46,548 nucleotides of DNA from Bacteroidales bacterium (GTDB taxonomy: Bacteria > Bacteroidota > Bacteroidia > Bacteroidales > VadinHA17): the NCBI GenBank assembly GCA_035530535.1, contig DATKUS010000184.1, positions 1-46,548 of the forward strand. Direction: 5' to 3'. The notes beneath the pieces are model-generated. The model did no database searches and had not been told where the DNA came from. It saw nothing but the letters and a program-made list of their open reading frames with translations. Each line of letters opens with the position of its first letter. Within the stretch, counting starts at the first letter, position 1. A program made the position numbers and the translations under genes. This document shows positions 22,783-45,520 of the stretch, one piece after another.

Positions 22783-24024
22783 TTAAGATTTTTGATTGAT
22801 GACGAAACAGTGAAGCTCATTCTTCAGATAGTGGATTTCAAGGTTATGAGTGTCACAGATCTTTTTAACAATAGCTAAGCCAAGACCGCTGGAATTTGAT
22901 TTGCCACTGGTGAAACGATTGAATATATTTCCATCTGTCAGAGAATTATCTTTGGCCGTATTACATAACTTAAAGACCTCTTTATTAATGACTACCTGTA
23001 TGCTGCCGCCCTTAATGTTATGGTTGACAGAATTGGAAAACAGATTATTAATTAATATTTCTGCAAGCTGTTCATTCATTCTAACTACAAAATCCTGTTC
23101 AACCTGAACATCAACTTTCAGTTCCTTTGATTCAAAAAGAGTCGAAAATTCTTCTGTTTTTCTGTTTACAAGTTCTTTAAGGGAGACTGTTTTGTCAGCT
23201 GCAAATTGTCTGTTTTCGATTTTTGTAAGTAACAAAAGGCTTTGATTGAGTGTTGAAAGTCTTTTTACCGCGCTGACGGATGTTGCCACCTTGGTGAAGG
23301 TTTCTTCATCCAGATCATGCTGTAAAAGTTCTTCAAGGTTGAGCAGGATAATTGAAAGCGGAGTCTGAATCTCATGCGACGCATTTTCACTGAATTCTTT
23401 CAGTGAGAGATAGTCAGTTTTCAATTTTCTGGTAAGGTCGGCCATCACCCTGTTTAAGCTATCAAACTCATCAATTCCTGATTTCACAAGCGAGATATCA
23501 TCTCTTCCGCTGAGACTGAAGTTTTCAATTTCACGCAGGTTATGCTCGAAATCGGACCAGACTGTTTTGTTCGTCTTCCTGGTGATAAAAAACGAAATAA
23601 TAAATGCACCGAAAAGGAGCACGAATAATGTCAGAGCAAGAACAATCACCAGGTCTTCATTTTCAAAGGCAGACTGACGCAGTTTTATCAGATAATAGGA
23701 ATCATTTATTTTGATCTTATTTGAATATTCCAGAAAAAACTCATTTTCATTTTCCAGTTCATTTCTGATCTCAACTTCTTTGAATAAAGGCTTTTGAATC
23801 ATGGTATCTTCAGCTTCTTTCACTTCAATTACAGGGTGCAGATTGGGTATTTCACCTGTCCTGAGAATCTGTTGCTCAATAAGATATTCTTTTGCCTTGA
23901 GATTCTCTTTTGCCCCTCTGATAATAATTACATGCAGGATAAAGTATCCGCCGACTGTAACCCCGGAAAGGATAAGAAAAAAGAATGTCAGGTAGTTACG
24001 GTTAATTTTTGTCAGGAATTTCAT
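22783..24024 (-). CDS. Sensor histidine kinase
   Basis: Has two TM helices, an H-box FSENASHEIQTPLS, an N-box NNLFSNSVNHN and a G-box SSGLGLAIVKKI. Confidence 0.9.
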   Translation of the reverse strand: MKFLTKINRNYLTFFFLILSGVTVGGYFILHVIIIRGAKENLKAKEYLIEQQILRTGEIPNLHPVIEVKEAEDTMIQKPLFKEVEIRNELENENEFFLEYSNKIKINDSYYLIKLRQSAFENEDLVIVLALTLFVLLFGAFIISFFITRKTNKTVWSDFEHNLREIENFSLSGRDDISLVKSGIDEFDSLNRVMADLTRKLKTDYLSLKEFSENASHEIQTPLSIILLNLEELLQHDLDEETFTKVATSVSAVKRLSTLNQSLLLLTKIENRQFAADKTVSLKELVNRKTEEFSTLFESKELKVDVQVEQDFVVRMNEQLAEILINNLFSNSVNHNIKGGSIQVVINKEVFKLCNTAKDNSLTDGNIFNRFTSGKSNSSGLGLAIVKKICDTHNLEIHYLKNELHCFVINQKS

Positions 24025-24698
24025 TTGTCTGTAAACTTGTATCCCATACCGTAAATAGTTTTTATATAGTCAGTTCCGCCAGCCAGCTTTATCTTCCTGC
24101 GTATATTATTCAAATGAGTGTAGATAAAATCGTAACTGTCAGATAAATCGATGCTGTCTTCCCACAGATGTTCAGCAATGGCTTCTTTTGTCAAAACCCT
24201 GTTCTTATTGATAATAAAGAATAATAGCAGATCGAACTCTTTCTTCGTTAAAGTAATTTCCTTACCGCTAATGGTAACGGATTTACTGTCAGCATTTACC
24301 ATTACCTCATTAAAATTAATTATGCTGGATCCGTCAAACTTTCGTCTTCTCAGTACTGCCCTGATCCTGGAATTCAATTCTGAGAGCTGAAACGGTTTAG
24401 CCAGGTAATCATCGGCTCCCAGATCGAGTCCTGTTATCTTTTCATCTGTCGAATTTCTTGCAGAAATGATGATTACTCCTGATCTGATCTGGCGTTTCTT
24501 TATTCTCTTCAATAATTCAAGCCCATTGCCGCCGGGCAAGGTAATATCCAGAAGGATCAGATCATACTCATATATTGATAATTTTTCATCAGCCCTCCGG
24601 AAATCCTCTGCCAGTTCGCAGATATATTTCTCTTTGGTAAGATAATTACTGATTGCGATCAGTAATTCTATTTCATCTTCAATTATCAGAATTTTCAC
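24021..24698 (-). CDS. OmpR/PhoB-type response regulator
   Basis: Has a receiver domain (ILIIEDE ... LILLDITLPGGNG ... DDYLAKPF) and a winged-helix output domain (LTKKEFDLLLFF, GMGYKF). It has a GTG start and a 4-nt ATGA overlap with the kinase gene. Confidence 0.9.
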   Translation of the reverse strand: MKILIIEDEIELLIAISNYLTKEKYICELAEDFRRADEKLSIYEYDLILLDITLPGGNGLELLKRIKKRQIRSGVIIISARNSTDEKITGLDLGADDYLAKPFQLSELNSRIRAVLRRRKFDGSSIINFNEVMVNADSKSVTISGKEITLTKKEFDLLLFFIINKNRVLTKEAIAEHLWEDSIDLSDSYDFIYTHLNNIRRKIKLAGGTDYIKTIYGMGYKFTDK

Positions 24699-24871
24699 AT
24701 AATAAAGATAAGGGATAATTCTAAAGGAAATCTAAAGATGATAGGAAAGTGGTGCCAGGGGAAAGGGTATTGAAAAGATTGAAATTAGCAATAGAATCTA
24801 GTTGGGCAACTTCAACATCAATAAATTATTGGAGTTGGTAAAGCTGGAACATTAATTCATGTTTGGGACTA

Positions 24872-25627
24872 TTATAAGCGGGTAAGCAGGGGTGCGGATA
24901 CTTTCCATATTCCTTCCTGATCATCGTCTTCAATTACTGAAATAGTTTTCCTGTTTATTTTTATTACCCTGCCATGCCGGACAATTCCGCTGTAATCCTT
25001 CCAGGATACTTTCTGACCAGGTTGAAACTGTGAATTTTGAGCAAGTCTGTACAGGTCATCCATGATTTTGATCCGGTGCATGATCATTTTATTAACTGCA
25101 ATCAGTTCTGACCTGTCGAGAGAATTCAATATTTGTGCAACCTTCTCCATCGTTTGATTCATGATTTTAATTTTATCGTCAATTGAGATTGCAATAAAAC
25201 CATCTTTGTCTAGCAATTTGTACAATAAAGTTAATCTAGGGTACATCATGCAAAGCCACTTATCGTGCCTTGCCAGGTCATCAATCCCAATTGCAGCTTC
25301 CTTCCCGTTTTCTTTTGCCTTCAGAGTTGCCTCAAGCCATTTCCTGATCTTCGGATGGTTTACATTGTCATTATATACCCAGTTCTCATTTCCGGTGTTA
25401 TAAGGCGGATCTATATAAATACATTTGATTTTCCCCTCATACTCAGGCAATAGGCTTTTCAGGGCTTCGAGGTTATCTCCATGAATGATCTTATTACCGC
25501 TATTTACCGGTTCCTCTGATTCACCTTTAGCTACACTAAAGCCATATTTATGCTCCAGTATCTTAAAGGGTACCTCCCTGTGGTGATTTATTACTTTCTC
25601 TTTTCCTATCCAGCTCAATGTCGGCAT
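24872..25627 (-). CDS. Chimeric ORF: N-terminal ~150 aa of a type III-like (Mod) N6/N4 DNA methyltransferase joined in frame to an unrelated ~95-aa C-terminal segment
   Basis: The N-terminus reads LSWIGKEKV...IIHGDNLEALKSL...IYIDPPYNTGNE (DPPY at 25400-25411) ...HDKWLCMMYPRLTLLYKLLDKDGFIAISIDD. After that, similarity to methyltransferases stops and there is no downstream AdoMet-binding motif. The tail (possible own start MNQTMEKV at 25162) looks like an independent small protein (QKVSWKDYSGIVRHGRVIKINRKTISV). Confidence 0.6.
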   Translation of the reverse strand: MPTLSWIGKEKVINHHREVPFKILEHKYGFSVAKGESEEPVNSGNKIIHGDNLEALKSLLPEYEGKIKCIYIDPPYNTGNENWVYNDNVNHPKIRKWLEATLKAKENGKEAAIGIDDLARHDKWLCMMYPRLTLLYKLLDKDGFIAISIDDKIKIMNQTMEKVAQILNSLDRSELIAVNKMIMHRIKIMDDLYRLAQNSQFQPGQKVSWKDYSGIVRHGRVIKINRKTISVIEDDDQEGIWKVSAPLLTRL

Positions 25628-25893
25628 ATTGTTTACTTCCTATTAACTTTTAAATTCCTTATGTAACCTGATTCAGGTCGGGATAAACTCACAAAAATTA
25701 CGTTCCTTTATTTTGCTAAACCTGACAGATAAAGCCAAAAATATACATAATAAAGGAAATCATGAAGAAAAAGAACTGGCCGACTGTGCAAAGTTGGAGA
25801 TATGACGAAATGTACTAAAATGGTCAACATTTATAATAATAGCCATATTGAGGCGGGTAAGGTACTTCCCGCAAAGCTCTTTAAGAACGGGAA

Positions 25894-27303
25894 TTACTTT
25901 CCGATGCAAAAGTTTTTAAAGATGTCTCCGAGTATTTCATCACTTGTGATCTTTCCCGTGATCTCTCCAAGAAAGTAAATTGCCTGCCGGATATCTGTTG
26001 CAATAAGTTCCGTGGGGATGCCGTTCCTGAATCCTTTCAGGGCCCTTTCCAGGCTTGCAGAGACATTTATTAGTGCGTGCCAGTGCCTGGCGTTGGATAC
26101 AATATACTGAGGCATTTTAAGACCGCCTGTTTCAACTGACCTGATAAGATGCTGCTTGAGATCTTCAATGCCCGTAGATTCCCTGGCTGAAATAAACAGA
26201 GGAGCAAATCCTCCTGAATCTGTCAGAGTCTTTCTCAGACTACCGGTCTGACCTGTTGTCAGCAGATCTGTCTTGTTTACTACAAGAATAATCTTTGACC
26301 CGGGAGCTGTCTGAATGTTTTTTACAGAGTTGTAAAAAGAGATAATATCATCAGGATTATCGGTAGCTTCACTGACAGCCAGTACTACTGCAGCCTGGCT
26401 TACTTTTGATAATGTCCGCTCAATTCCCTGTGCCTCAATCTTGTCCTCAACCGTTTCCTTCCTCAACCCTGCAGTATCTATAAACCTGAACATCAGTCCG
26501 CCGAGATGAATGACCTCCTCAACCGTATCACGCGTTGTCCCAGGTATTTCCGAGACGATTGCTCTTTCTTCCTGGAGCAGCACGTTCAGCAACGACGATT
26601 TTCCTACGTTTGCCCTTCCCGCTATCACCACAGGAATCCCTTTCCTGATTGCATTACCAAGGCGGAATGACGAGGCAAGAGTATCTACAAGGCTCCTGAT
26701 CCTGATTATCGTTTCAGTCATCATGCCCCTGTCAGCAAAAAGTATATCCTCCTCACTGAAGTCGAGTTCCAGCTCTATCAGCGCGGCAAAATGCAGAAGC
26801 TCCTGCCTGAGCTTTTCTATCTCGGCAGAGAAGCCTCCCCTGAGCTGTGTTGCTGCAAGGCGATGGGCGGCTTCAGAGTCAGAAGCAATAATGTCAGCCA
26901 CAGCCTCTGCCTGTGAAAGATCCATCTTTCCGTTCATAAAGGCGCGCATGGTAAACTCACCGGGATTGGCAGGAATGGATCCTGACCTTATCAACAGCTC
27001 CATTATCTTTTCCTGGATATAATGTGAAGCATGACAGCTGATCTCAACCATATCTTCACCGGTGTAGGAGAGGGGTGCCCTAAATAGGGAAATCAGGACT
27101 TCATCAAGGAATTCATCCGCCGAAGATAGGGTCCCGAAAATCAATGAATACCCCTTCGCACTAACTATATCTATTTGATCATCAGAAGGTTTAAAGATTT
27201 CCTTCACCATCTTTATGGCATCAGGTCCTGAAATCCTGACAATTGCAATAGCTCCGCCCCCCGATGTGGCAGGTGCGCATATAGTTGTTCCTTTTTGAAC
27301 CAT
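25894..27303 (-). CDS. mnmE: tRNA modification GTPase MnmE
   Basis: Has N-terminal TICAPATSGGGAIAIVRISG, G-domain motifs GRANVGKSS, DTAG and NKTD, and the hallmark C-terminal FCIGK. The track start (27312) is a GTG. The ATG at 27303 gives a canonical N-terminus. Confidence 0.95.
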   Translation of the reverse strand: MVQKGTTICAPATSGGGAIAIVRISGPDAIKMVKEIFKPSDDQIDIVSAKGYSLIFGTLSSADEFLDEVLISLFRAPLSYTGEDMVEISCHASHYIQEKIMELLIRSGSIPANPGEFTMRAFMNGKMDLSQAEAVADIIASDSEAAHRLAATQLRGGFSAEIEKLRQELLHFAALIELELDFSEEDILFADRGMMTETIIRIRSLVDTLASSFRLGNAIRKGIPVVIAGRANVGKSSLLNVLLQEERAIVSEIPGTTRDTVEEVIHLGGLMFRFIDTAGLRKETVEDKIEAQGIERTLSKVSQAAVVLAVSEATDNPDDIISFYNSVKNIQTAPGSKIILVVNKTDLLTTGQTGSLRKTLTDSGGFAPLFISARESTGIEDLKQHLIRSVETGGLKMPQYIVSNARHWHALINVSASLERALKGFRNGIPTELIATDIRQAIYFLGEITGKITSDEILGDIFKNFCIGK

Positions 27304-35002: not shown

Positions 35003-35074
35003 GCCTCCTTAGCTCAGTGGTAGAGCAGCTCACTCGTAATGAGCAGGTCGTGGGTTCAACTCCCATGGGAGGCT
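35003..35074 (+). tRNA. tRNA-Thr (anticodon CGU)
   Basis: Hand-folded cloverleaf: acceptor GCCTCCT/GGGAGGC, D arm GCTC-AGTGGTA-GAGC, anticodon arm GCTCA-CTCGTAA-TGAGC, variable AGGTC, T arm GTGGG-TTCAACT-CCCAT. No CCA is encoded. Confidence 0.9.
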
Positions 35075-35194
35075 CTGGGGGGAGTTGGAAGTGCCTGGAG
35101 TGAGTTAAAGTGAACTAAAGTTATAGGGAGTTTATACAGCAGTACTGCATGACTTAAGGACGGAGCTCAGTGACAGACATAAAAACAATTGTAT

Positions 35195-35266
35195 GCGGGA
35201 GTAGCTCAGGGGTAGAGCATCAGCTTCCCAAGCTGAGGGTCGAGGGTTCGAATCCCTTTTCCCGCT
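35195..35266 (+). tRNA. tRNA-Gly (anticodon CCC)
   Basis: Hand-folded cloverleaf: acceptor GCGGGAG/TTCCCGC, D arm GCTC-AGGGGTA-GAGC, anticodon arm TCAGC-TTCCCAA-GCTGA, variable GGGTC, T arm GAGGG-TTCGAAT-CCCTT. No CCA is encoded. Confidence 0.9.
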
Positions 35267-35277
35267 CAAATAAAATG

Positions 35278-36210: not shown

Positions 36211-36648
36211 CTATTTACATTCCTCAAATTCTTTGTCAAATTGAACTACATATTCACCATCGGGAGTAAGGGTAACATGAATAGTGCCGTGACCCATAAA
36301 CACCATTTTCCCATCAAGGAAAAATTTCCAAGAACCAGTCCAAGCATAATCTCCGGTTGGCCCCTCGGCGTAAGGGTGCCAATTATTATTTTGAATCTGC
36401 ATTAAAGTATATTCATTTTTCGTAATATCACCTTTCAAAGTGCCCCACATTTTTCCCTGCCAATGGCTATTTACAATAGTGCCCTGGTAGGATACAGTAC
36501 CATTCACATATTCATTGAAGCAGGGCAGATAATAAGGTATGAGGGTACCAGTTCCTTCGTACACTATTTTTTTCTCTTGAGCATCGGCTGTGCTTACAGA
36601 AAAGCATGCCACCAGACAGATTAAGAATAATAACTTTAGTGTTTTCAT
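36211..36648 (-). CDS. Hypothetical secreted protein (145 aa)
   Basis: Has a signal peptide (LLFLICLVACFSVSTADAQ) and a Trp/Gly/Tyr-rich, beta-type mature part. I recognise no family. Confidence 0.6.
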   Translation of the reverse strand: MKTLKLLFLICLVACFSVSTADAQEKKIVYEGTGTLIPYYLPCFNEYVNGTVSYQGTIVNSHWQGKMWGTLKGDITKNEYTLMQIQNNNWHPYAEGPTGDYAWTGSWKFFLDGKMVFMGHGTIHVTLTPDGEYVVQFDKEFEECK

Positions 36649-36812
36649 ATAAGTTGCCGGAGTTAAAACCCTGATTTATAAATAACTATCATTAAGACAA
36701 TCTGACCGGCCGAATGTGGTCAACGGAAACGGCTTTTGCAGTAAATTCCGAATTTTGTGAATAACACTGGCTTGATTTTTGTTATGAATACTTTAACACT
36801 AAACCTAAAATC

Positions 36813-37619
36813 ATGAAAAAGATAGCATTGATGTTATTCTGTGCTCTCATTCTCTCTTCATGCGAAAATGAAAAACTATTGATTGTTGAGAACACCGATA
36901 TTCCATTAATAAGTAAAATTCTGATTGATGGTGTATCGTATTATGAATATTCGTATAATGATGCAAATTTGCTTATTGAAGAAAAAAACAAATTCCATTA
37001 CACAAAGCACAACTACAACGACAATAACCTTTTATCATCTTCTGAATTTTATATGGACCCTGCAATGTTTAGCAGTAATAGCAGTGTAGTTGAAGCATCT
37101 TTGAATAGGAAAGAATGGGTTAATCCTGGTAATACAGCAAAAAGCCTTACACAGACGTTCGAGTATAACGGAAATGGTCAATTAGCCAGAAAAATTTATA
37201 CTCGGCCTTCCGTAACCAATTCAGAATACTCAGAATTTACCTTTGATAATGACAGAATTAGCAGGCAAACAATGTATTGGCAGAATGAAATGTCCTTCTA
37301 CGTTGACTATAAATATGATGAAAAAGGGAATTTACTTAAAGAATCAAAATTCCATGTGCCATCGACTGGAATTTCTGAGTTATGGACAACTACTGAATAT
37401 GAATATGATATCATGCATAATCCTTTTCAGGCATTTAAACGTTTAATATCTCCAAGTAAATATATCAACCCAAACAACATTACTAAAGAAACATATACAA
37501 TTCATTTTGATGTTGACCAGTGGACTCAAAAAGTGCAGATAACAACCAACTCATATGAATATGATGATAATGGCTACCCAATAAAAGTAAACGGGGTGGC
37601 CGAATATGTATATAAATGA
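36813..37619 (+). CDS. Hypothetical lipoprotein with YD/RHS-like short repeats
   Basis: Has a lipobox (ALILSSC). It carries repeated motifs of the Y-x-Y-D/N-x-x-G/N-x-L type: YSYNDANLLIEE, HNYNDNNLLSSS, FEYNGNGQLARK, YKYDEKGNLLKE and YEYDDNGYPIKV. The gene is very AT-rich. Confidence 0.6.
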   Translation: MKKIALMLFCALILSSCENEKLLIVENTDIPLISKILIDGVSYYEYSYNDANLLIEEKNKFHYTKHNYNDNNLLSSSEFYMDPAMFSSNSSVVEASLNRKEWVNPGNTAKSLTQTFEYNGNGQLARKIYTRPSVTNSEYSEFTFDNDRISRQTMYWQNEMSFYVDYKYDEKGNLLKESKFHVPSTGISELWTTTEYEYDIMHNPFQAFKRLISPSKYINPNNITKETYTIHFDVDQWTQKVQITTNSYEYDDNGYPIKVNGVAEYVYK

Positions 37620-37908: not shown

Positions 37909-38625
37909 TCATGACACCACGTGCAGCGAAGGTGAGCCCTCCAAAGCCCTCACCATATATCTCATGTTCTTAGGATTAATTAAAAGAAGTGTAACCTCAT
38001 AAAAATACCCTTCCTCTGTCTCTTCCGTAAACCTGATTGAAGGCTCCTCCTTCAGATTGCTCCATGGAGCGTTAAGTACCGCAGAGCGGATAAGTGATTC
38101 CGCATTTTTCTTTTCAACAGACAGTTCGACCCTGACGTGAAGAGTATGCTCCTCATGGCCACCGGTATAGTTAAGTTCTGTTACAACCTCATTTATTATT
38201 CTGGAATAGGGAATCCTCAGGAGGAGTTTGCCATCATCTGTCAGTAATATCAGGCATGTAAGTTGCTGAGATTTAACCTGTCCTGAGAGATCGCCCACAC
38301 GTATTAACGAACCATTTCCCAGGTTATGCCTTATCCTGAAGGTTAATCCTGCAAAAACATCCCTCAGAAAAAACCATGAAGTAAGGCCGGCAACAATAAT
38401 TATCAGGGCATAAATAAGGTAATGGTAATAAAACTTATCTCTAAAAAGGTGATCCGCTGCCCAGAAAACAAATCCCAGCCAAAGTATAATCTCGGTACCC
38501 GTCATTAAATCTGACAGGCGATCCATGAGAGAGTGTTGTTTCATAAGGTCATTTAGCAAAAACCTTATGGTTTTAAACCCAAAATAGATCAGTGCTGCAA
38601 CAAAAAAGACAATAATTATATTCAT
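37909..38625 (-). CDS. Small MscS-family mechanosensitive channel-like protein
   Basis: Has three N-terminal TM helices followed by an MscS beta-domain pattern (GSLIRVGDLSGQVKSQQLTCLILLTDDGKLLLRIPYSRIINEVVTELNY). The track start (38634) is a TTG, and the ATG is at 38625. Confidence 0.6.
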   Translation of the reverse strand: MNIIIVFFVAALIYFGFKTIRFLLNDLMKQHSLMDRLSDLMTGTEIILWLGFVFWAADHLFRDKFYYHYLIYALIIIVAGLTSWFFLRDVFAGLTFRIRHNLGNGSLIRVGDLSGQVKSQQLTCLILLTDDGKLLLRIPYSRIINEVVTELNYTGGHEEHTLHVRVELSVEKKNAESLIRSAVLNAPWSNLKEEPSIRFTEETEEGYFYEVTLLLINPKNMRYMVRALEGSPSLHVVS

Positions 38626-38659
38626 CTCAGGCAAACTGAATTAGTTAATTGCAGAGTTT

Positions 38660-41600
38660 TCATAATGCCCTGCTTCTTTTTAAAGCCTTTATCAAATGAG
38701 GTTCTAAATAGTTATTTACAATATATAGGTTTTCTCTCTTTTCTTCGATCAGGCCTGCCCTTAACATTGAACCTATGACCTCACTTGTCCTGGCATCATC
38801 TGAGAAAAAGATCTTTGTGATCCTTTCCAAGGTCAGGCGCTTATGGAGGATAAGCTGTATTATCACAACTTTCCAGTCCTCATCCAGGTCGTCCAGTATT
38901 TTTGTGTCGGGTGGTTCCGGAACCCTTATAAAAATCTTCTTCTCTGAAACCTTATTAATGTTTGCCAGCCATGCTTTGAGAGCATTACCGGGATTTCCCT
39001 CAGAAAAATTAAAATACTTATTAAACAGGCTGGCCATGCGTATTTCTGACATTTCTTCCTCTTCCCTGCCATTAAGAACGAACCTCATTCCGCTGGAACG
39101 ATGCCTGCGGATAATTATATCCTGTATCTCTCTTGAATAGAAAGGCTTCAACGGTATGACACTTATGAATAGTTCCTGAAGATTTACTATTTTGTTCATC
39201 AGGTCAAAAGTGTAAGGATTCATGTTTACAATGAAGAGAATCCTGTCGGAATAGTCGTTGATAAGACCCATTAACAGCATTATCACTTCCCATCCTCCGG
39301 AGGAACGATCCCACCAGAGTTCCAGGTCATGAATTATGATAACACTCCGATGGGGTAGTGATTCCATGATTTCTTTCAGGCTACCACGTGAATTAGTGAC
39401 CTTTTTAAGCTCTTCGATGAAATCAGCCACCTGAACTGAGCCTGTATAAACGGGAAATAAATGAAAGACCTTCTCTTTCTTAAAGTGCCTCTCTGAGATA
39501 TACCTGCAAAAAGCAGTCTTGCCGGAGTTTCTGTCCCCGATAATCATTATTCCACCCTTATAGCCCGCATTATTTCGATCTATGCCAGCCATGAACATCT
39601 CTTCATCAGCTTCCCTTCCTATCCAGAAGTCTTCAATGATACTTGAACGCCCGCTGAACAGGTTCTTATAAAATTGAGGAAGCCTTTCAATGACCTTTGT
39701 ATCTGGACTGACTTGATCAATAAGGTCAAGAAGCTTTTGATTTCCCTTTATAGTATGTTCGGATTCATTTATTTTTTTTGTCAGTAATATCAGTTCACTT
39801 CTTGAATATAGTACTCTTGCAGTCAGATTTATAATAAAAAATCTCAACCGGCTGTAATATGCACCAACAGTCTTTTTAACCTTTATCCCCTTGTGTTCTC
39901 TGATAAATCCTGAATATTCTGAAAGGGTTAATGGTATCTGGTATGCTGATAATTTGCTGAACACCTCTTCAAGTGACCCTTCCATCAGTTCATTTATTTC
40001 TTCCTTAACCTGTTTGATCTTCCGTTCCTCTTTCAGGATTTTCTGACAAGCATCCTCAATAATCGGAGCGGCTACCTGAGGTCTGTCTGGCAGATCATCG
40101 GGAATATTTTCAAGGTTGAAGCGTGCAAAACTTAAAAGGTCATGAATGATAAAAATGGTATTCTTCAGCGATTCGGAAACGCTCTCCAAATGATCATAGA
40201 TTGTTCCGATGAACCGTGATTCGATATAGAATCGTGCGATTTTCTTCAAAGGAACATTCAGAACTTCGTCACTTTCGCTTTTGGTTGAATCAGTACTGTC
40301 TGAGGAAGCAATTAACAGGTTTTCAGGAAGGGTTTCGGATATCAGAAGTACATCTTTCCCGAACTGTTTAAAGTCTTTCAGCAAAGGAATATCCTCTTCA
40401 AGTGAACTTATGCTTGATTTTAATCCAGAGATTCTTCCAGGCTTAACACCTGACTTTAAAAGCTTTAACCTGAGTGATTCCAATTCCGTTCCGAAACGGT
40501 TATCAAGTTGGTAAGCTATCTCCAGGTTAAACTCGTTTATCTTGTCATTGATCCTGCTCTTTACCGATTGCAGAAGCACATCCATATGGATTTTATTGAC
40601 CTGGTGTAAAGAATGCTCGAACCATGCCTCTATAAATCCAAGATTCTTCCGTAACAGTTCCTCATAATACTTACTATTCCTTTGTCTCCACCTTATGCGG
40701 AAGTTGATGTCAACTTTACCCATGTCATTACTCATCTGCTGAAGATTCTTTTGCCACTCCAGCATAAGTCTGTTCCTTGTCTGATTCTTCAGATGATCTA
40801 AGCCCGACATAAATTCGCTGACCCTGTTTTCATTTGCCTTTTGGGTTATTAAAACAGAGGCAAGGAGATCATCTTTATTCATTGCCCTTTTATAGAGACT
40901 GTCAAGCATGGTGTCAACCGAGATAATCAATGATCTCATTTCAGAGTATTGAAGGAAAAGATCACTTCTGAACTTGCTGAGAAAAGCTAAAAGATAATAA
41001 TGCCGGTTATTACGTAAATAATATGAAGCAATAGAATGGTAGTGGATCTTCCCGGTTATCTGTGTCCTTGCAAAGGGGTGTAAGATGCGCATTCTGAGTA
41101 TAAACAATTTCAGTCGGAATGGATCATTCCTCTTAAGTTTAAGATCTTCCCTTTCATAAGGGATTGATATTTTCTGTGGAAACTTCCGGAGATCCTCGTC
41201 GAGGCGCTCAATATACCAGCTGATGCCGCTTGCCAATGCATCTCTCTGTATTCCGAGCTTATTATTTACAAGGTCAATAAAAACACGATTAGTCCTGAAA
41301 TAAAAGTCATTTTTTATTTTGATCAGTGACTTCTTTACCCGGTAAGTATCATCAAGGGTCTTCAGATTATCCAGCTGAATAATCACCGAGTTGCTTGCTG
41401 CCAGAAGCTCATTTGAAAGTTTCTGTAATTCAGAGAATACAGGGGTAAAAGCTTTTTCGAAGAAAAGGGACAGGACTTTTTGCCCGTTAGTATCTATCTT
41501 ACTGATGTCATCATTAATGATGCTGTACTTTGAAGGTACCAGTTCAGGCAATACAAGTTTCTGAGTATCAGGAGCAATATGCTCTTCAACCTGTTTTGTA

Positions 41601-43759
41601 TCAATTCCGAGGTCAAACGACTCAAACCTCGATGAACTATTCAAAAGCACAAATGTCCCGAGATGCTGTGAAAGAGTCATCACTTCATCATATGTTTCGT
41701 CAATATGCTGGTATTGCTTGTCAGGAATACCAATGAATGTCAGGTCAGTATTTGATGACTCGCGGCTTATGATCTCATTCTTTGGCAAAGCATCAACTGA
41801 ATTGTTAATGATTTTTATTTCGATGCTGATGCGGTACTTATTAGTAATATTTTGAAGGGTCCTGTAAATTGTCTCTTCCCGGTCACGGAGACTGTTTATT
41901 ACCAGCAACCGAATATGAGCATCTTTCCAGTCACCTGTTGACGTAAAATGTCTGAGAAGGAAGATCGAGAATGAAAGGTTGCTGCCCCAGCCACTCCACC
42001 ATACATCTATGGTTTTCTTGTCCCCGTATTTCTTCAGGAAGTTAAAACTGAGAAGAATGGTATTTAAGTCACTCTCCTCAAAGTTCTTTATAGCCTTTAA
42101 GAAATCCTCTTTATTGTTTTCATTCCTGCTCCACCCCATAAGAATAGTATCCGGCTCAACGCCGGAGAAACCGTAAACACGTGATATCTCATTCATTCCC
42201 TCATACACATTACGGCATTCATGTTGATGGATCATGAGTTCAACATTACTTCCGGAAGCAGAAAAATAGCGCCTGTCCTTTACCAGCTTTGGCTCCTTGG
42301 ACTCAATCATTTCAAAAGCTGAAAACATGCCAAGCCTGCCGCTGATGGCGCCGGCCATTTCAACGAGGTGGGGTCTTGCACTATCCTGACCGGAGAACAT
42401 AATAATATTAGGCCGCCAGTTGCGTGTGTTGATGGAAGACCTGTTCAGGCGCCGGAGACCTGCCCTGACAAGTGTGGACCACACACTGCTCCAGGCATCA
42501 CCGGTTTCAAGAACAAGTTGCCTCTGCTTCAGGAACAGAAAGAGCGCACCCAGAATTACTATTGCTCCAACCATTGCTAAGAAGTCAAGCTGTATCATTA
42601 CAATGACACAGGCCAGAAAACCAATTATGCTTACCCAGGCAGGTGTTTTGAAAGAGGGCCGGAAATCAGCACTGGTCAGAGATTCAAAAGCAGCGCTCAG
42701 GTTCAGGAATCCGTATGTGGTGATGAAAAAAATGGTGACGATCCGGGCTATGACATCCAGTTCCCCGATGAGAATGCCTGCTTCGGCAATAAAGAAAGTG
42801 AAAAGAAGAGCATTTCTGGGTTCCCTGGCAGCCCCGGTGCCGCGAGCAAAGATCCGTGGCGTAATCTTATCAATGGCTGTGGACTGCAGGATCCTGGGAG
42901 CAGCAAGGATACTGCCTAGGGCTGAACTTAATGTGGCTCCCCAGATACCAGCAATCACGAATTGAGGCACCAGGGATATCTTGAACAGTGCCTTGGAATC
43001 GGTGGCAAGAAATTCCCCATCAACGGTGTATGCAAAGAAAAATGCCAGAATGATATATACTACTAAACCGATCGATATGGCAGAAATAGTACCCAGGGGA
43101 ATGGATTTTTTTGGATCTTTCAGATCGCCTGACATTGAAACACCTGCTTCAAATCCGCACACAGCCGGGAAAAAGATACCAAAGAGTACTATAAGGGGAA
43201 CACCGGTGCCCTTGCCGAAAAAATTTGGCGTAGCAGGGGCCAGGTCATGATGACCAAAGAATATTGAGAGAAGAGAGAGAAAGATCGCTGCCATTATCAG
43301 ATACTGTGTCTTTATGGCCAGGGAAGTGCTTACGAAAGTTATTATTGTCACAACCAGCAGGATAATGCTCCCGGTAATCCTTATGTAGTTTATATCCATA
43401 GGAAGGTTCCAATAGTTAAGAAAACTTTCGGAAAAACCTATAAGATAAAGACTTACGCTGAATGACAACCCGACAAAAAGCGCCAGTCCCAGGGTTCCAC
43501 CTATGGGCAGACCAAGGCTTCTGGAAATAATAAAGTATGTCCCGCCCTCCTTGACCTTCTTATCAGTGGCAATGGATGACACACTCAACCCGGTGGTTAT
43601 TGAAATCAGATGAGCCACCACGATGATGCCCAAAGTACCTATTAGTCCTGCCTCACCCGATATCATCGGTAAGCGCATATACATTATCACCCCTAAAATG
43701 GTAAGTATGGAAGGAGTGAAAACTCCGCCAAAAGTCCCGAACTTTTTTCCTTTAGCCAT
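38660..43759 (-). CDS. 1,699-aa fusion protein: SLC12/CCC-type cation-chloride cotransporter (TM + C-terminal domain) + ~650-aa helical region + P-loop NTPase (Orc1/Cdc6- or STAND-like) + winged helix
   Basis: This is one uninterrupted ORF with an ATG start.
- aa 1-~430: APC-fold 12-TM region (GTFGGVFTPSILTILGVIMYMRL, FFPAVCGFEAGVSMSGDLKDPKKSIP, GATLSSALGSILAAPRILQ).
- aa ~445-715: SLC12 cytosolic domain (NWRPNIIMFSG, IDVWWSGWG, TDLTFIGIP).
- aa ~1378-1480: FWIGREADEE, Walker A GDRNSGKT (39515-39538) and Walker B VIIIHDLE (~39320-39344).
- Last ~90 aa: wHTH-like (LTLERITKIFFSDDARTSEVIGSMLRAGLIEE). Confidence 0.85.
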   Translation of the reverse strand: MAKGKKFGTFGGVFTPSILTILGVIMYMRLPMISGEAGLIGTLGIIVVAHLISITTGLSVSSIATDKKVKEGGTYFIISRSLGLPIGGTLGLALFVGLSFSVSLYLIGFSESFLNYWNLPMDINYIRITGSIILLVVTIITFVSTSLAIKTQYLIMAAIFLSLLSIFFGHHDLAPATPNFFGKGTGVPLIVLFGIFFPAVCGFEAGVSMSGDLKDPKKSIPLGTISAISIGLVVYIILAFFFAYTVDGEFLATDSKALFKISLVPQFVIAGIWGATLSSALGSILAAPRILQSTAIDKITPRIFARGTGAAREPRNALLFTFFIAEAGILIGELDVIARIVTIFFITTYGFLNLSAAFESLTSADFRPSFKTPAWVSIIGFLACVIVMIQLDFLAMVGAIVILGALFLFLKQRQLVLETGDAWSSVWSTLVRAGLRRLNRSSINTRNWRPNIIMFSGQDSARPHLVEMAGAISGRLGMFSAFEMIESKEPKLVKDRRYFSASGSNVELMIHQHECRNVYEGMNEISRVYGFSGVEPDTILMGWSRNENNKEDFLKAIKNFEESDLNTILLSFNFLKKYGDKKTIDVWWSGWGSNLSFSIFLLRHFTSTGDWKDAHIRLLVINSLRDREETIYRTLQNITNKYRISIEIKIINNSVDALPKNEIISRESSNTDLTFIGIPDKQYQHIDETYDEVMTLSQHLGTFVLLNSSSRFESFDLGIDTKQVEEHIAPDTQKLVLPELVPSKYSIINDDISKIDTNGQKVLSLFFEKAFTPVFSELQKLSNELLAASNSVIIQLDNLKTLDDTYRVKKSLIKIKNDFYFRTNRVFIDLVNNKLGIQRDALASGISWYIERLDEDLRKFPQKISIPYEREDLKLKRNDPFRLKLFILRMRILHPFARTQITGKIHYHSIASYYLRNNRHYYLLAFLSKFRSDLFLQYSEMRSLIISVDTMLDSLYKRAMNKDDLLASVLITQKANENRVSEFMSGLDHLKNQTRNRLMLEWQKNLQQMSNDMGKVDINFRIRWRQRNSKYYEELLRKNLGFIEAWFEHSLHQVNKIHMDVLLQSVKSRINDKINEFNLEIAYQLDNRFGTELESLRLKLLKSGVKPGRISGLKSSISSLEEDIPLLKDFKQFGKDVLLISETLPENLLIASSDSTDSTKSESDEVLNVPLKKIARFYIESRFIGTIYDHLESVSESLKNTIFIIHDLLSFARFNLENIPDDLPDRPQVAAPIIEDACQKILKEERKIKQVKEEINELMEGSLEEVFSKLSAYQIPLTLSEYSGFIREHKGIKVKKTVGAYYSRLRFFIINLTARVLYSRSELILLTKKINESEHTIKGNQKLLDLIDQVSPDTKVIERLPQFYKNLFSGRSSIIEDFWIGREADEEMFMAGIDRNNAGYKGGIMIIGDRNSGKTAFCRYISERHFKKEKVFHLFPVYTGSVQVADFIEELKKVTNSRGSLKEIMESLPHRSVIIIHDLELWWDRSSGGWEVIMLLMGLINDYSDRILFIVNMNPYTFDLMNKIVNLQELFISVIPLKPFYSREIQDIIIRRHRSSGMRFVLNGREEEEMSEIRMASLFNKYFNFSEGNPGNALKAWLANINKVSEKKIFIRVPEPPDTKILDDLDEDWKVVIIQLILHKRLTLERITKIFFSDDARTSEVIGSMLRAGLIEEKRENLYIVNNYLEPHLIKALKRSRAL

Positions 43760-43824: not shown

Positions 43825-43832
43825 CAAATATA
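43825..43832 (-). promoter_or_regulatory. Candidate -7 promoter box (TATATTTG on the minus strand) for the 1,699-aa gene
   Basis: Plus-strand caaatata is TATATTTG on the minus strand, 66-73 nt upstream of the ATG at 43759. I saw no convincing -33 TTTG. Confidence 0.3.
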
Positions 43833-44024: not shown

Positions 44025-44960
44025 TCAGTACTGTCTCAGAACTTCAATTCTCTTGTCTATCGGAGGATGCGTACTGAATAATGAGGCAAGGGAGATTGAA
44101 GCTCCTTTTTTATCTATCTCCCTTGGATTCTCAATGAAAAGCTGCGCAACATCATGACGTTCAACAGCCTCAATGCGTGGATCAGCCGATATCTTCTCAA
44201 GCGCAGAAGCCAGGGCAAGAGGCCTCTTAGTCATCATTGCAGATCCTGCGTCTGCCATAAACTCACGCTGCCTGGAAATGGCGAACCTGAATAACGATGA
44301 CAGAAGGTATCCTATTCCGGCCAGAAAGAGTGCGATCAGCACCATCCGGCCATCCTTTTTCCCGCGTCCTCCTCCGCTGAATCTGAAGGAACGAAGCAAT
44401 GCTTCAGTAATAAAAGCGAAAATACCTACGAATACTATCGAAATGATCAGCAGTCTGACATCACGGTTCCTGATATGTGTAAGCTCATGGGCAATGACAG
44501 CCTCAAGCTCCTCCTCATCAAGCTTATTGATTATACCGCTGGAAAGAGAAACAGTGAAAGTAGATTTGTTAATTCCACTTGCAAATGCATTCAGAGAGTC
44601 ATCATTGATCACATTAATTCTTGGCATTTGCATTCCGCTGCCGATGCACAGATTTTCAACAAGGTTGTAAATCCTCTTGTTCTCTTTCCGGCTCAGAGGT
44701 GCAGAGCCGGTGGCTTTTTCAATCATTTTGGAATGAGAGAAAAATGCAATGAAAAACCAGAGCAGTATGGCCATTGAAACCCATGGTATGATCCGCATGA
44801 ATGTCTGGTTGGAATATGCAATCCTGTAATCTGACTGGGACTGAGTAAAGTAAATAAAAAGCCACACCAGCCCAAAAATGACTACGGGAAAGAGAACAAG
44901 CAATACAACTGATTTGAAATTATTAGTCCAAATCTGCGTATTAAGTCCGATGTATTTCAT
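44025..44960 (-). CDS. M48-family (HtpX-like) zinc metallopeptidase
   Basis: Has N-terminal TM helices, HELTHIRNRD (HExxH), a further TM pair, and EFMADAGSAMMT plus STHPPIDKRIEVL at the C-terminus. Confidence 0.85.
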   Translation of the reverse strand: MKYIGLNTQIWTNNFKSVVLLVLFPVVIFGLVWLFIYFTQSQSDYRIAYSNQTFMRIIPWVSMAILLWFFIAFFSHSKMIEKATGSAPLSRKENKRIYNLVENLCIGSGMQMPRINVINDDSLNAFASGINKSTFTVSLSSGIINKLDEEELEAVIAHELTHIRNRDVRLLIISIVFVGIFAFITEALLRSFRFSGGGRGKKDGRMVLIALFLAGIGYLLSSLFRFAISRQREFMADAGSAMMTKRPLALASALEKISADPRIEAVERHDVAQLFIENPREIDKKGASISLASLFSTHPPIDKRIEVLRQY

Positions 44961-44965
44961 CTAAC

Positions 44966-45520
44966 CTAGAATTTTAAGGTAGGCGTCTCCTCAGCCTTCG
45001 TCCTGTCAGCACCCAGATCGTACATCGTTTCGCGTTTGAAACCGAACATACCTGCAAGCAGGTTTGATGGGAACGTCTCAACGGCGTTGTTCAGCTCCTT
45101 GGTTGCGGAGTTGAAGAACCTGCGTACGGCAGCGAGTTTATTTTCAATGTCTGATATCTCCTCCTGCAGTTGTATAAAGTTCTGGCTGGCTTTAAGATCC
45201 GGGTAAGCTTCCACAGCTACCCTCAGACCCTGCAGGGCTGAAGTCATATTTGCATCAGCGGCAATCTTCTCATTGATACCGCTGGCCTGCAGCGCACTGG
45301 CACGCGCATTGGTAATGTCAGTAAGCACAGTGCTCTCATGCTTCATATATGCTTTCACCGCCTCAACTAACTGAGGAATAAGATCAAGTCTCTGCTTAAG
45401 CTGCACATCAATGTCAGCAAAAGCATTTTCGCGATTGTTCCTTAGTTTTACTAACCTGTTGTAGAGTCCTATTGCAAAAAGGACCAGGACAATGAGAATA
45501 ATAAGAAATCCTATAAACAT
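44966..45520 (-). CDS. LemA family protein
   Basis: Has a single N-terminal TM helix and LemA blocks (YNRLVKLRNNRENAFADIDVQLKQRLDLIPQLVE, AVRRFFNSATKELNNAVETFPSNLLAGMFGF). It ends 5 nt upstream of the M48 gene's start. Confidence 0.9.
   Translation of the reverse strand: MFIGFLIILIVLVLFAIGLYNRLVKLRNNRENAFADIDVQLKQRLDLIPQLVEAVKAYMKHESTVLTDITNARASALQASGINEKIAADANMTSALQGLRVAVEAYPDLKASQNFIQLQEEISDIENKLAAVRRFFNSATKELNNAVETFPSNLLAGMFGFKRETMYDLGADRTKAEETPTLKF

Follow-up and report, generated by a model that had tools for sequence, protein, structure and literature searches.

A predicted nucleotide-switch module fused to bacterial cation-chloride cotransporters and linked by gene order to MscS-like proteins

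Introduction

The cation-chloride cotransporters (CCCs) of the SLC12 family (NKCC, NCC and KCC; TC 2.A.30) of eukaryotes and archaea combine an APC-fold domain of 12 transmembrane (TM) segments with a cytosolic C-terminal domain. Animal cells gain volume through NKCC1 and NHE and lose it through KCCs and channels, with kinases in control. Whereas these animal proteins govern cell volume, blood pressure and neuronal chloride, the bacterial CCCs are almost unstudied. Here we analyse a single gene for a 1,699-residue protein, located at positions 38660..43759 (minus strand) of a 46,548-nucleotide stretch of DNA from a Bacteroidales bacterium (contig DATKUS010000184.1 of assembly GCA_035530535.1), hereafter the window. 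The encoded protein has the two-domain organization of the SLC12 transporters, but about 980 residues more after the C-terminal domain. Unlike the eukaryotic members it has no N-terminal phospho-regulatory region, and its regulation would come from a fused ATPase instead of the WNK-SPAK kinases.

Nucleotide-binding cytoplasmic domains that are attached or adjacent to ion transporters or channels tune ion and turgor homeostasis in several systems: the RCK/KTN domains of Trk/Ktr/Kef, the CBS domains of OpuA and ClC, the cyclic-nucleotide-binding MscS-like bCNG channels and the P-loop domain of KdpD. The window protein would follow this concept, but the closest matches to its predicted ATPase are found elsewhere. 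The Orc1/Cdc6 proteins (2qby, 1w5t, 1fnn) present a P-loop base, a helical lid and a C-terminal winged helix in the same order, and an N-terminal 'GRE' helix is common to both. With the STAND NTPases of the AAA_16 type (PF13191; MalT/LAL-like, Avs-like) it shares a core made of a nucleotide-binding domain, a helical domain and a winged helix.

Results

The gene begins with an ATG and contains no internal stop, its end coordinate taking in the stop codon. All its parts lie on the minus strand, which the original prediction had left unstated. A CCC/SLC12 transmembrane domain with 12 hydrophobic segments (aa 1-445; 42425..43759) is followed by an SLC12-type cytosolic C-terminal domain (aa 446-715; 41615..42424). 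A short low-confidence linker (aa 716-734; 41558..41614), with a predicted local distance difference test (pLDDT) score <50 for residues 1-14 of the extension, leads to a conserved helical region (aa 735-1377; 39629..41557) that begins at an LPELxPSKY motif. The C-terminal third comprises a P-loop ATPase core, or AAA+ base (aa 1378-1537; 39149..39628), a helical lid domain (aa 1538-1612; 38924..39148) holding R1552-H1553 and an EGNPG motif (aa 1587-1591), and a winged helix (aa 1620-1699; 38663..38902). The N-terminus, MAKGKKFGTFGGVF, agrees with the family consensus. Hydropathy places all 12 hydrophobic segments within aa 7-406, and no segment of transmembrane-grade hydropathy was detected in the extension, which is thus predicted to be cytoplasmic. 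Since it also follows the cytoplasmic C-terminal domain, the extension should be able to reach ATP.

The transporter part is readily recognized. Pfam AA_permease matches aa 13-411 (E 1.1e-44), the K-Cl cotransporter model TIGR00930 matches at E 2e-108, and about 30 solved KCC, NKCC and NCC chains in the PDB match with E-values from 1e-55 to 5e-70. Alignments to the KCC chains, with KCC2 and KCC4 at E ~1e-70, reach aa ~650-660. The Pfam SLC12 C-terminal profile covers aa 558-662 at 24.9 bits, just below its 27-bit cutoff, and most homologues of the fusion protein have a precomputed PF03522 match. By these similarities, residues 1 to about 715 are identified as a CCC/SLC12 transporter with its cytosolic C-terminal domain. 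In TM8 the protein reads ATLSSALGS where KCCs read STCGAGLQS; this Ser-Ser motif is NKCC/NCC-like and hints at possible Na+ coupling, given the residue roles in published NKCC1 structures. In TM6, aa 200 (codon 43159-43161) is a cysteine ('FFPAVCGFEAG'), whereas threonine occupies this position in the family consensus ('FFPAVTGFEAG') and in KCCs ('FPSVTGIMAG'). This threonine coordinates K+ in solved CCCs. Plain bacterial CCCs of about 720-765 residues occur in the same clades as the fusions (P0049; loci L018 and L032). The original prediction stated that prokaryotic CCCs end at roughly 700-750 residues; such plain forms do exist, but many bacterial CCCs carry the extension.

The ATPase domain displays an F/W-x-G-R-E motif (aa 1378-1383), a Walker A motif GDRNSGKT (aa 1408-1415; nt 39515-39538), a Walker B motif IIIHDLE (aa 1474-1480; nt 39320-39340) and, in the lid, the block KPFYSREIQDIIIRRH (aa 1538-1553). 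We counted residue conservation over 254 distinct relatives. In Walker A, G1413 is invariant (254/254), K1414 is kept in 240 relatives and replaced by Arg in 11 more, and T/S1415 is present in 253. Walker B residues D1478 and E1480 are kept in 242 and 240 relatives, respectively, and W1482 and W1483 in about 240. At the end of strand beta4, N1512 and N1514 are found in about 210 sequences. The lid residues R1552 (254/254) and H1553 (247/254) and the glycines G1588 (253/254) and G1591 (245/254) are also kept. The motifs read originally from the letters are thus present and nearly universal, and this pattern argues that the predicted nucleotide site is under strong selection.

Sequence profiles gave marginal matches only, so that structure prediction was needed to assign the fold. 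When Pfam and NCBIfam were run on the whole protein, AAA_16 reached 15.9 bits, under its cutoff of 32.6, and this sub-threshold match was the only one obtained on the extension. A profile of the ATPase and winged helix compared with PDB sequences retrieved RhoE (0.0013), a MarR-like protein (0.013) and Orc4 (0.068). Divergent relatives of the module pass the AAA_16 cutoff, namely P0051 with 34.9 bits and the module of locus L083 with 38.1 bits, and divergent members also pass the curated cutoff of AAA_22. An AlphaFold2 model of aa 1340-1699, computed from an 18-sequence alignment, has a pLDDT of 90.2 and a predicted template modelling score (pTM) of 0.88, and shows a P-loop core of five strands, followed by a helical lid and a winged helix. 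Foldseek against the PDB placed archaeal Orc1/Cdc6 proteins first (2qby_A, E 1.7e-10; 1w5t and 1fnn, E ~1e-10), with about 400 aligned columns covering base, lid and winged helix. The next matches were eukaryotic ORC/Cdc6, RuvB, the PF01637 ATPase 2qen and TnsC, and no pore-loop-type clade was among the best.

The helical region is of another kind. In the AlphaFold2 model, aa ~735-1377 form helices of 43-75 residues with two small beta insertions, mostly at pLDDT 80-95; the whole 979-residue extension has a mean pLDDT of 83.9 and a pTM of 0.53. Many positions of the region are invariant across the family, whose members share about 55-60% identity with the query here. It has no Pfam match, its profile finds nothing significant among PDB sequences (best E 0.12, apolipophorin-III and syntaxin), and hhalign of its two halves reveals no internal repeat. 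Foldseek with the 979-residue model returned no match to the helices in a search dominated by AAA+ matches. This region of about 640 residues is a new domain without detectable known fold or family.

The fused architecture is widespread. A search with the extension alone retrieved about 45 clusters of 1,691-1,703 residues with the same architecture and 33-83% identity. A full-length alignment of 43 clusters contains almost no indels, and identity to the query is about 55-65% in the extension and 80-95% in the membrane domain. With the ATPase and winged-helix profile, 3,934 representative clusters were found at E <= 1e-3 and 1,370 at E <= 1e-30; full-length CCC fusions (>=1,600 residues) make up 81 of the 150 best representatives at 50% identity. 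A second, word-indexed protein search with a profile gave mostly short fragments and no further architectures. Module-bearing loci come from Bacteroidales, Cytophagales (Fulvivirga marina, Ekhidna, Cyclobacteriaceae, Flexithrix dorotheae), Calditrichota, Myxococcota (three Enhygromyxa salina strains), Leptospiraceae, Latescibacterota and others. The source annotations of the homologues read only 'amino acid permease/transporter' or 'hypothetical protein'.

Some database entries are split or truncated (P0014, 1,042 residues; P0044, 1,452 residues; loci L024, L052 and L062), as would be expected if an assembly or frameshift error had joined two genes. With some 45 independent clusters of equal length, almost free of indels, and an uninterrupted fusion of the same length at 61 of 84 genome loci, this alternative is excluded beyond reasonable doubt. 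The architecture is common, but it is uncharacterized.

The module also exists apart from the cotransporter. Stand-alone versions of about 965-996 residues align to the fusion protein from aa 717-734 through its end and begin immediately ahead of an invariant LP.L.PS[KR]Y motif, which defines the module unit as aa ~735-1699. Fusion to a CCC is the majority arrangement. In a second form (P0051, 1,507 residues; PF00999, AAA_16 and AAA_22) the module is fused to an Na+/H+ exchanger, and an MscS-like gene follows at +2 nt. In Cyclobacteriaceae loci a stand-alone module is accompanied by a divergently transcribed Na+/H+ exchanger and a downstream MscS-like gene; the exchanger lies 57-99 nt upstream at L027, L028, L030 and L033. 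A stand-alone module in an operon (P0050/L086, 791 residues) precedes a 242-residue divergent MscS-like protein (pairwise E 3e-4) and then an Na+/H+ exchanger. At many Bacteroidota loci a divergently transcribed Na+/H+ exchanger of about 420 residues (PF00999) is encoded 50-210 nt upstream. Two loci carry a second, highly divergent paralogous module of about 972 residues with an AAA_22 match (L034, 2807-5725; L042, 1798-4722), head-to-head with the CCC fusion and associated with a 317-residue MscS-like gene. The module is tied, covalently or genetically, to the CCC, Na+/H+ exchanger and MscS-like channel classes.

An apparent two-gene version was found at L083, with a 657-residue CCC and a 1,053-residue module. 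The breaks at L083 (5894-11083) and at L089 (1857-6967) nearly coincide, both cutting the CCC C-terminal domain at about aa 667-675 of the query, and the end of that domain stays with the module; these may be natural two-gene forms or frameshifts. The CCC-fusion locus that diverges most has a gene for a microbial rhodopsin (PF01036) beside the divergently transcribed Na+/H+ exchanger (L002, 2479-3339; L003, 2461-3321); the rhodopsin may add a further ion pump to this neighbourhood. In a Lentimicrobiaceae genome (L004, 13731-15070), the cluster is followed downstream by three tandem genes for 101-residue GIY-YIG proteins.

In the window, the gene for a small MscS-like membrane protein lies 34 nt downstream of the fusion gene (37909..38625, minus strand; 238 residues from its ATG). 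The mechanically called open reading frame (ORF) starts at a TTG at 38634 and gives 241 residues. The original prediction mentions neither this gene nor the Na+/H+ exchanger neighbours and fusions, which we regard as the most telling trait of the system. The protein matches MS_channel_2nd (PF00924) with 24.1 bits, above the cutoff of 20.2, and orthologous partners score up to 72 bits; by these matches the partner is identified as MscS-like, a putative channel. Of the 84 loci with enough downstream sequence, at least 68 carry a co-directional MscS-like gene immediately after the module gene, with gaps of -56 to +204 nt, and this adjacency holds across several phyla. Several seeming exceptions are over-extended ORF calls. 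At many loci the two genes overlap by 1, 4 or 10 nt, and such stop/start overlaps suggest translational coupling. Seen from the MscS side, the 21 closer relatives (41-100% identity) are encoded either on short contigs or on contigs that match ones with a module; the one that was looked up stands directly after a module gene.

In the AlphaFold2 model the last domain (aa 1620-1699) folds as a winged helix. Across the family its mean net charge is about +0.4, its wing is acidic (mean -1.4), and the first half of its recognition helix is poorly conserved. In 63 upstream regions no k-mer or palindrome was common above shuffle level, only A/T-rich words.

Directly upstream of the fusion gene the window encodes an M48/HtpX-like peptidase (311 residues) and a LemA-family protein (184 residues) at 44025-45520 on the minus strand. 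Repeat, promoter and terminator scans around the fusion gene gave nothing above chance, including a sigma-70 scan; 66 nt upstream of the start codon, at 43825-43832 (minus strand), TATATTTG matches the Bacteroidota -7 promoter consensus, TAnnTTTG. Genes for tRNA-Thr(CGT) and tRNA-Gly(CCC) lie at 35003-35267, 3.4 kb from the fusion gene. Between them and the MscS-like gene, two small secreted or lipoprotein-like ORFs occupy the part of the window lowest in G+C content (36211-37619; 0.35), one with a weak RHS-repeat match and the other without family. Farther away, a DNA methylase gene (N6_N4_Mtase; 24872-25627) sits in a stretch of lower G+C content (23001-26000; 0.37-0.38 against about 0.43-0.46 around it), which may be a small acquired restriction-modification remnant.

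Discussion

The original prediction, made from the letters alone, described one uninterrupted ORF with four parts: a complete 12-TM APC-fold transporter with an SLC12-type C-terminal domain, about 650 residues of helical or coiled sequence without a recognized motif, an Orc1/Cdc6- or STAND-like NTPase, and a winged helix. All four domain calls were borne out by profiles and structure prediction. Pfam, TIGR00930, PDB matches and the 12 segments agree on the transporter, and long helices without a family were found where the coiled stretch had been noted. The NTPase and winged helix emerged from structure prediction and Foldseek only. Profile searches, structure prediction and Foldseek had all been proposed for the extension, and together they left the helices unmatched. 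Of the three roles proposed for the protein, the gene context favours an NTP-gated device for ion homeostasis.

In our best explanation, which we put at an even chance, the module would switch with nucleotide and so keep cation/chloride transport in step with release through an MscS-like valve. The CCC tail would carry a self-contained regulatory module of about 965 residues, a helical stalk followed by an Orc1/Cdc6/STAND-type switch, and this module would work together with the MscS-like protein encoded downstream. Nucleotide binding, and probably hydrolysis, would change the conformation or the oligomeric state of the stalk. The state of the stalk would then set the balance between the attached transporter (salt uptake) and the MscS-like valve (solute release), so that the cell would tune cytoplasmic Na+, K+ and Cl- and its turgor to its energy or ionic state. 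The partnership is proposed because the same module recurs in four arrangements, a Rosetta-stone pattern, and because of the MscS-like adjacency. The analysis establishes the identity of the domains, the almost universal presence of the nucleotide-binding residues, the cytoplasmic, non-membrane character of the extension and the recurrence of the module with three kinds of ion-transport partner. That the module touches the MscS-like protein is inferred, as are the way in which regulation runs, the signal sensed and the physiological role. That a single nucleotide-controlled complex physically links CCC or Na+/H+ exchanger uptake to the MscS-like valve through the ~640-residue stalk, setting both influx and efflux, is a bolder proposal that we hold tentatively and consider somewhat doubtful. 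Those carriers that are in culture (Flexithrix dorotheae, Fulvivirga marina, Enhygromyxa salina, Ekhidna) live in the sea or are adapted to salt, a habitat that speaks weakly for an osmotic role.

Several observations weigh against a coordinating switch of this kind. The association of module and partner comes from gene order and fusions only. About 12-16 of the 84 loci have no adjacent MscS-like gene, for example in Fulvivirga marina (L037) and Ekhidna (L038), and the most distant MscS-like relative (P0238, 34% identity) is not beside a module. The window locus itself lacks an Na+/H+ exchanger and has the M48 peptidase and LemA genes upstream instead. In the 979-residue model the low pTM leaves the placement of stalk and ATPase relative to each other uncertain. 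The nucleotide site also departs from the canonical pattern. Over the 254 relatives, no arginine finger is conserved between beta4 and beta5 (aa 1523 is K/R in only 147), no sensor-2 arginine is found, the 'GDAR' position reading 'GNPG', and Walker B has an unusual D-x-E spacing instead of DE; the finger and sensor-2 positions were set by secondary structure and consensus motifs, without superposition. Because both arginines are absent, hydrolysis may be slow, or the domain may be a binding switch only. As far as its residues tell, the ATPase is thus more likely a switch that binds nucleotide or hydrolyses it slowly than a ring-forming motor.

This bears directly on the idea that the module is an assembly or remodelling ATPase, an AAA+ chaperone that assembles, inserts or disassembles the MscS-like multimer or the transporter dimer and does not gate them. 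Its AAA+-type fold, its conserved site and its tight genetic coupling to a family of multimeric channels would all suit such a role, and the divergent members matching AAA_22 belong with the family of ExeA/GspA, ExeA being an ATPase of secretin assembly. We nevertheless regard it as unlikely, since the missing arginines make a ring motor improbable, no pore-loop-type clade is among the best structural matches, and a covalent 1:1 fusion suits a regulator better than a catalytic chaperone. Similarly unlikely is a membrane-tethered transcription regulator, in which the winged helix and ATPase would bind DNA nearby, perhaps in the stretch separating the gene from that of the Na+/H+ exchanger, and so couple the state of the transporter to expression. 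The best structural matches are DNA-binding proteins (Orc1/Cdc6, RuvB, TnsC), the last domain has its marginal match to a MarR-like winged helix-turn-helix, many loci have the divergently transcribed exchanger, and stand-alone modules have no membrane anchor. This option of the original prediction is disfavoured by the near-neutral winged helix with its acidic wing and variable start of the recognition helix, by the lack of a common motif in the upstream regions and, in the window, by the lack of a divergent partner gene; moreover, STAND and ORC winged helices often make protein contacts.

A purely structural role is very improbable in our judgement. In it the long helices would serve to anchor or cluster the transporter, for instance at a pole or on a cytoskeletal element, with localization as the only thing under the control of the ATPase. 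Such a role would account for some 640 residues of very long helices with many invariant motifs, but leaves unexplained the MscS-like partner, the Na+/H+-exchanger fusion and the soluble stand-alone forms. We give even slightly less credit to the abortive-infection device also suggested at the outset, where infection would make a STAND-like sensor open an ion pathway or reverse it. The order of effector and STAND-like NTPase does resemble Avs-type systems, and PADLOC reported one very weak match (mad8 in P0051, E 0.004). It gave none for the window protein, its partner or P0050; the protein ends with the winged helix and has no C-terminal sensor repeats; and the neighbourhood is one of housekeeping genes (MnmE, SucD, tRNAs, RND efflux). 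Ion-homeostasis genes accompany the module stably in phylum after phylum, and the protein varies little in length or sequence, unlike fast-evolving defence genes. The coordinating switch thus remains our preferred explanation.

At least 81 clusters (50% identity) from several phyla show that a large share of environmental bacterial CCCs, labelled only 'amino acid permease', bear an unannotated tail of about 980 residues. As the module recurs with the Na+/H+ exchanger and is linked to MscS-like genes, it is a candidate unit for regulating salt and turgor. If the proposal is true, it would add a mode of regulating secondary transporters and MscS-type channels, give a function to the new ~640-residue helical domain, and provide the first example in which secondary transporters and a mechanosensitive-type channel are gated by a switch of the AAA+/STAND type. 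Our full-text literature searches found no description of a CCC or other secondary transporter fused to an AAA+/STAND-like ATPase, in line with what was first supposed of such a tether, and none of a comparable pairing of ATPase and MscS genes; the architecture appears widespread but undescribed.

Compared with known systems, the ATPase is best filed as Orc1/Cdc6-like in fold and STAND/AAA_16-like in motifs, a strict member of neither. Its lid motif 'PF..xEI..II.RR' resembles the Orc1/Cdc6 motif 'F.PY...EL..IL..R', but identity to these proteins is only 12-15%, and they differ in having an arginine finger, a sensor-2 arginine and a regular Walker B. The winged helix of the module is not basic, and no origin or replication context surrounds it. 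On the other side, 'HDLELWWERS' and 'EGNPG' resemble the AAA_16 motifs 'DDLHWAD' and 'GGNP'. In contrast to STAND proteins, the module carries no C-terminal sensor repeats (TPR/WD40/LRR), as the protein stops about 4 residues past the last helix of the winged helix; the N-terminal 'effector' is here a complete transporter plus a 640-residue helical region, and, unlike that of Avs-like sensors, the window gene has no defence context. The partner passes the family cutoff of MscS channels and begins with three hydrophobic helices, after which come beta and alpha-beta regions, but it is very divergent from solved MscS (PDB 4hw9, E 0.31), shorter (238 residues), less rich in Gly/Ala in the pore-helix region, and genetically tied to an ATPase module.

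Pfam and NCBIfam detected no RCK/KTN, CBS, cyclic-nucleotide-binding or KdpD family in the fusion protein, and the regulatory folds of those systems are unrelated to an AAA+/STAND-like domain on a stalk. The component folds, apart from the helical region, are known; their combination and the three-way association are new. By analogy with animal cells, the fused ATPase would fill the role that kinases play in volume regulation, and the module with its transporters and MscS-like partner would be a prokaryotic counterpart of kinase-controlled NKCC/KCC/NHE volume regulation.

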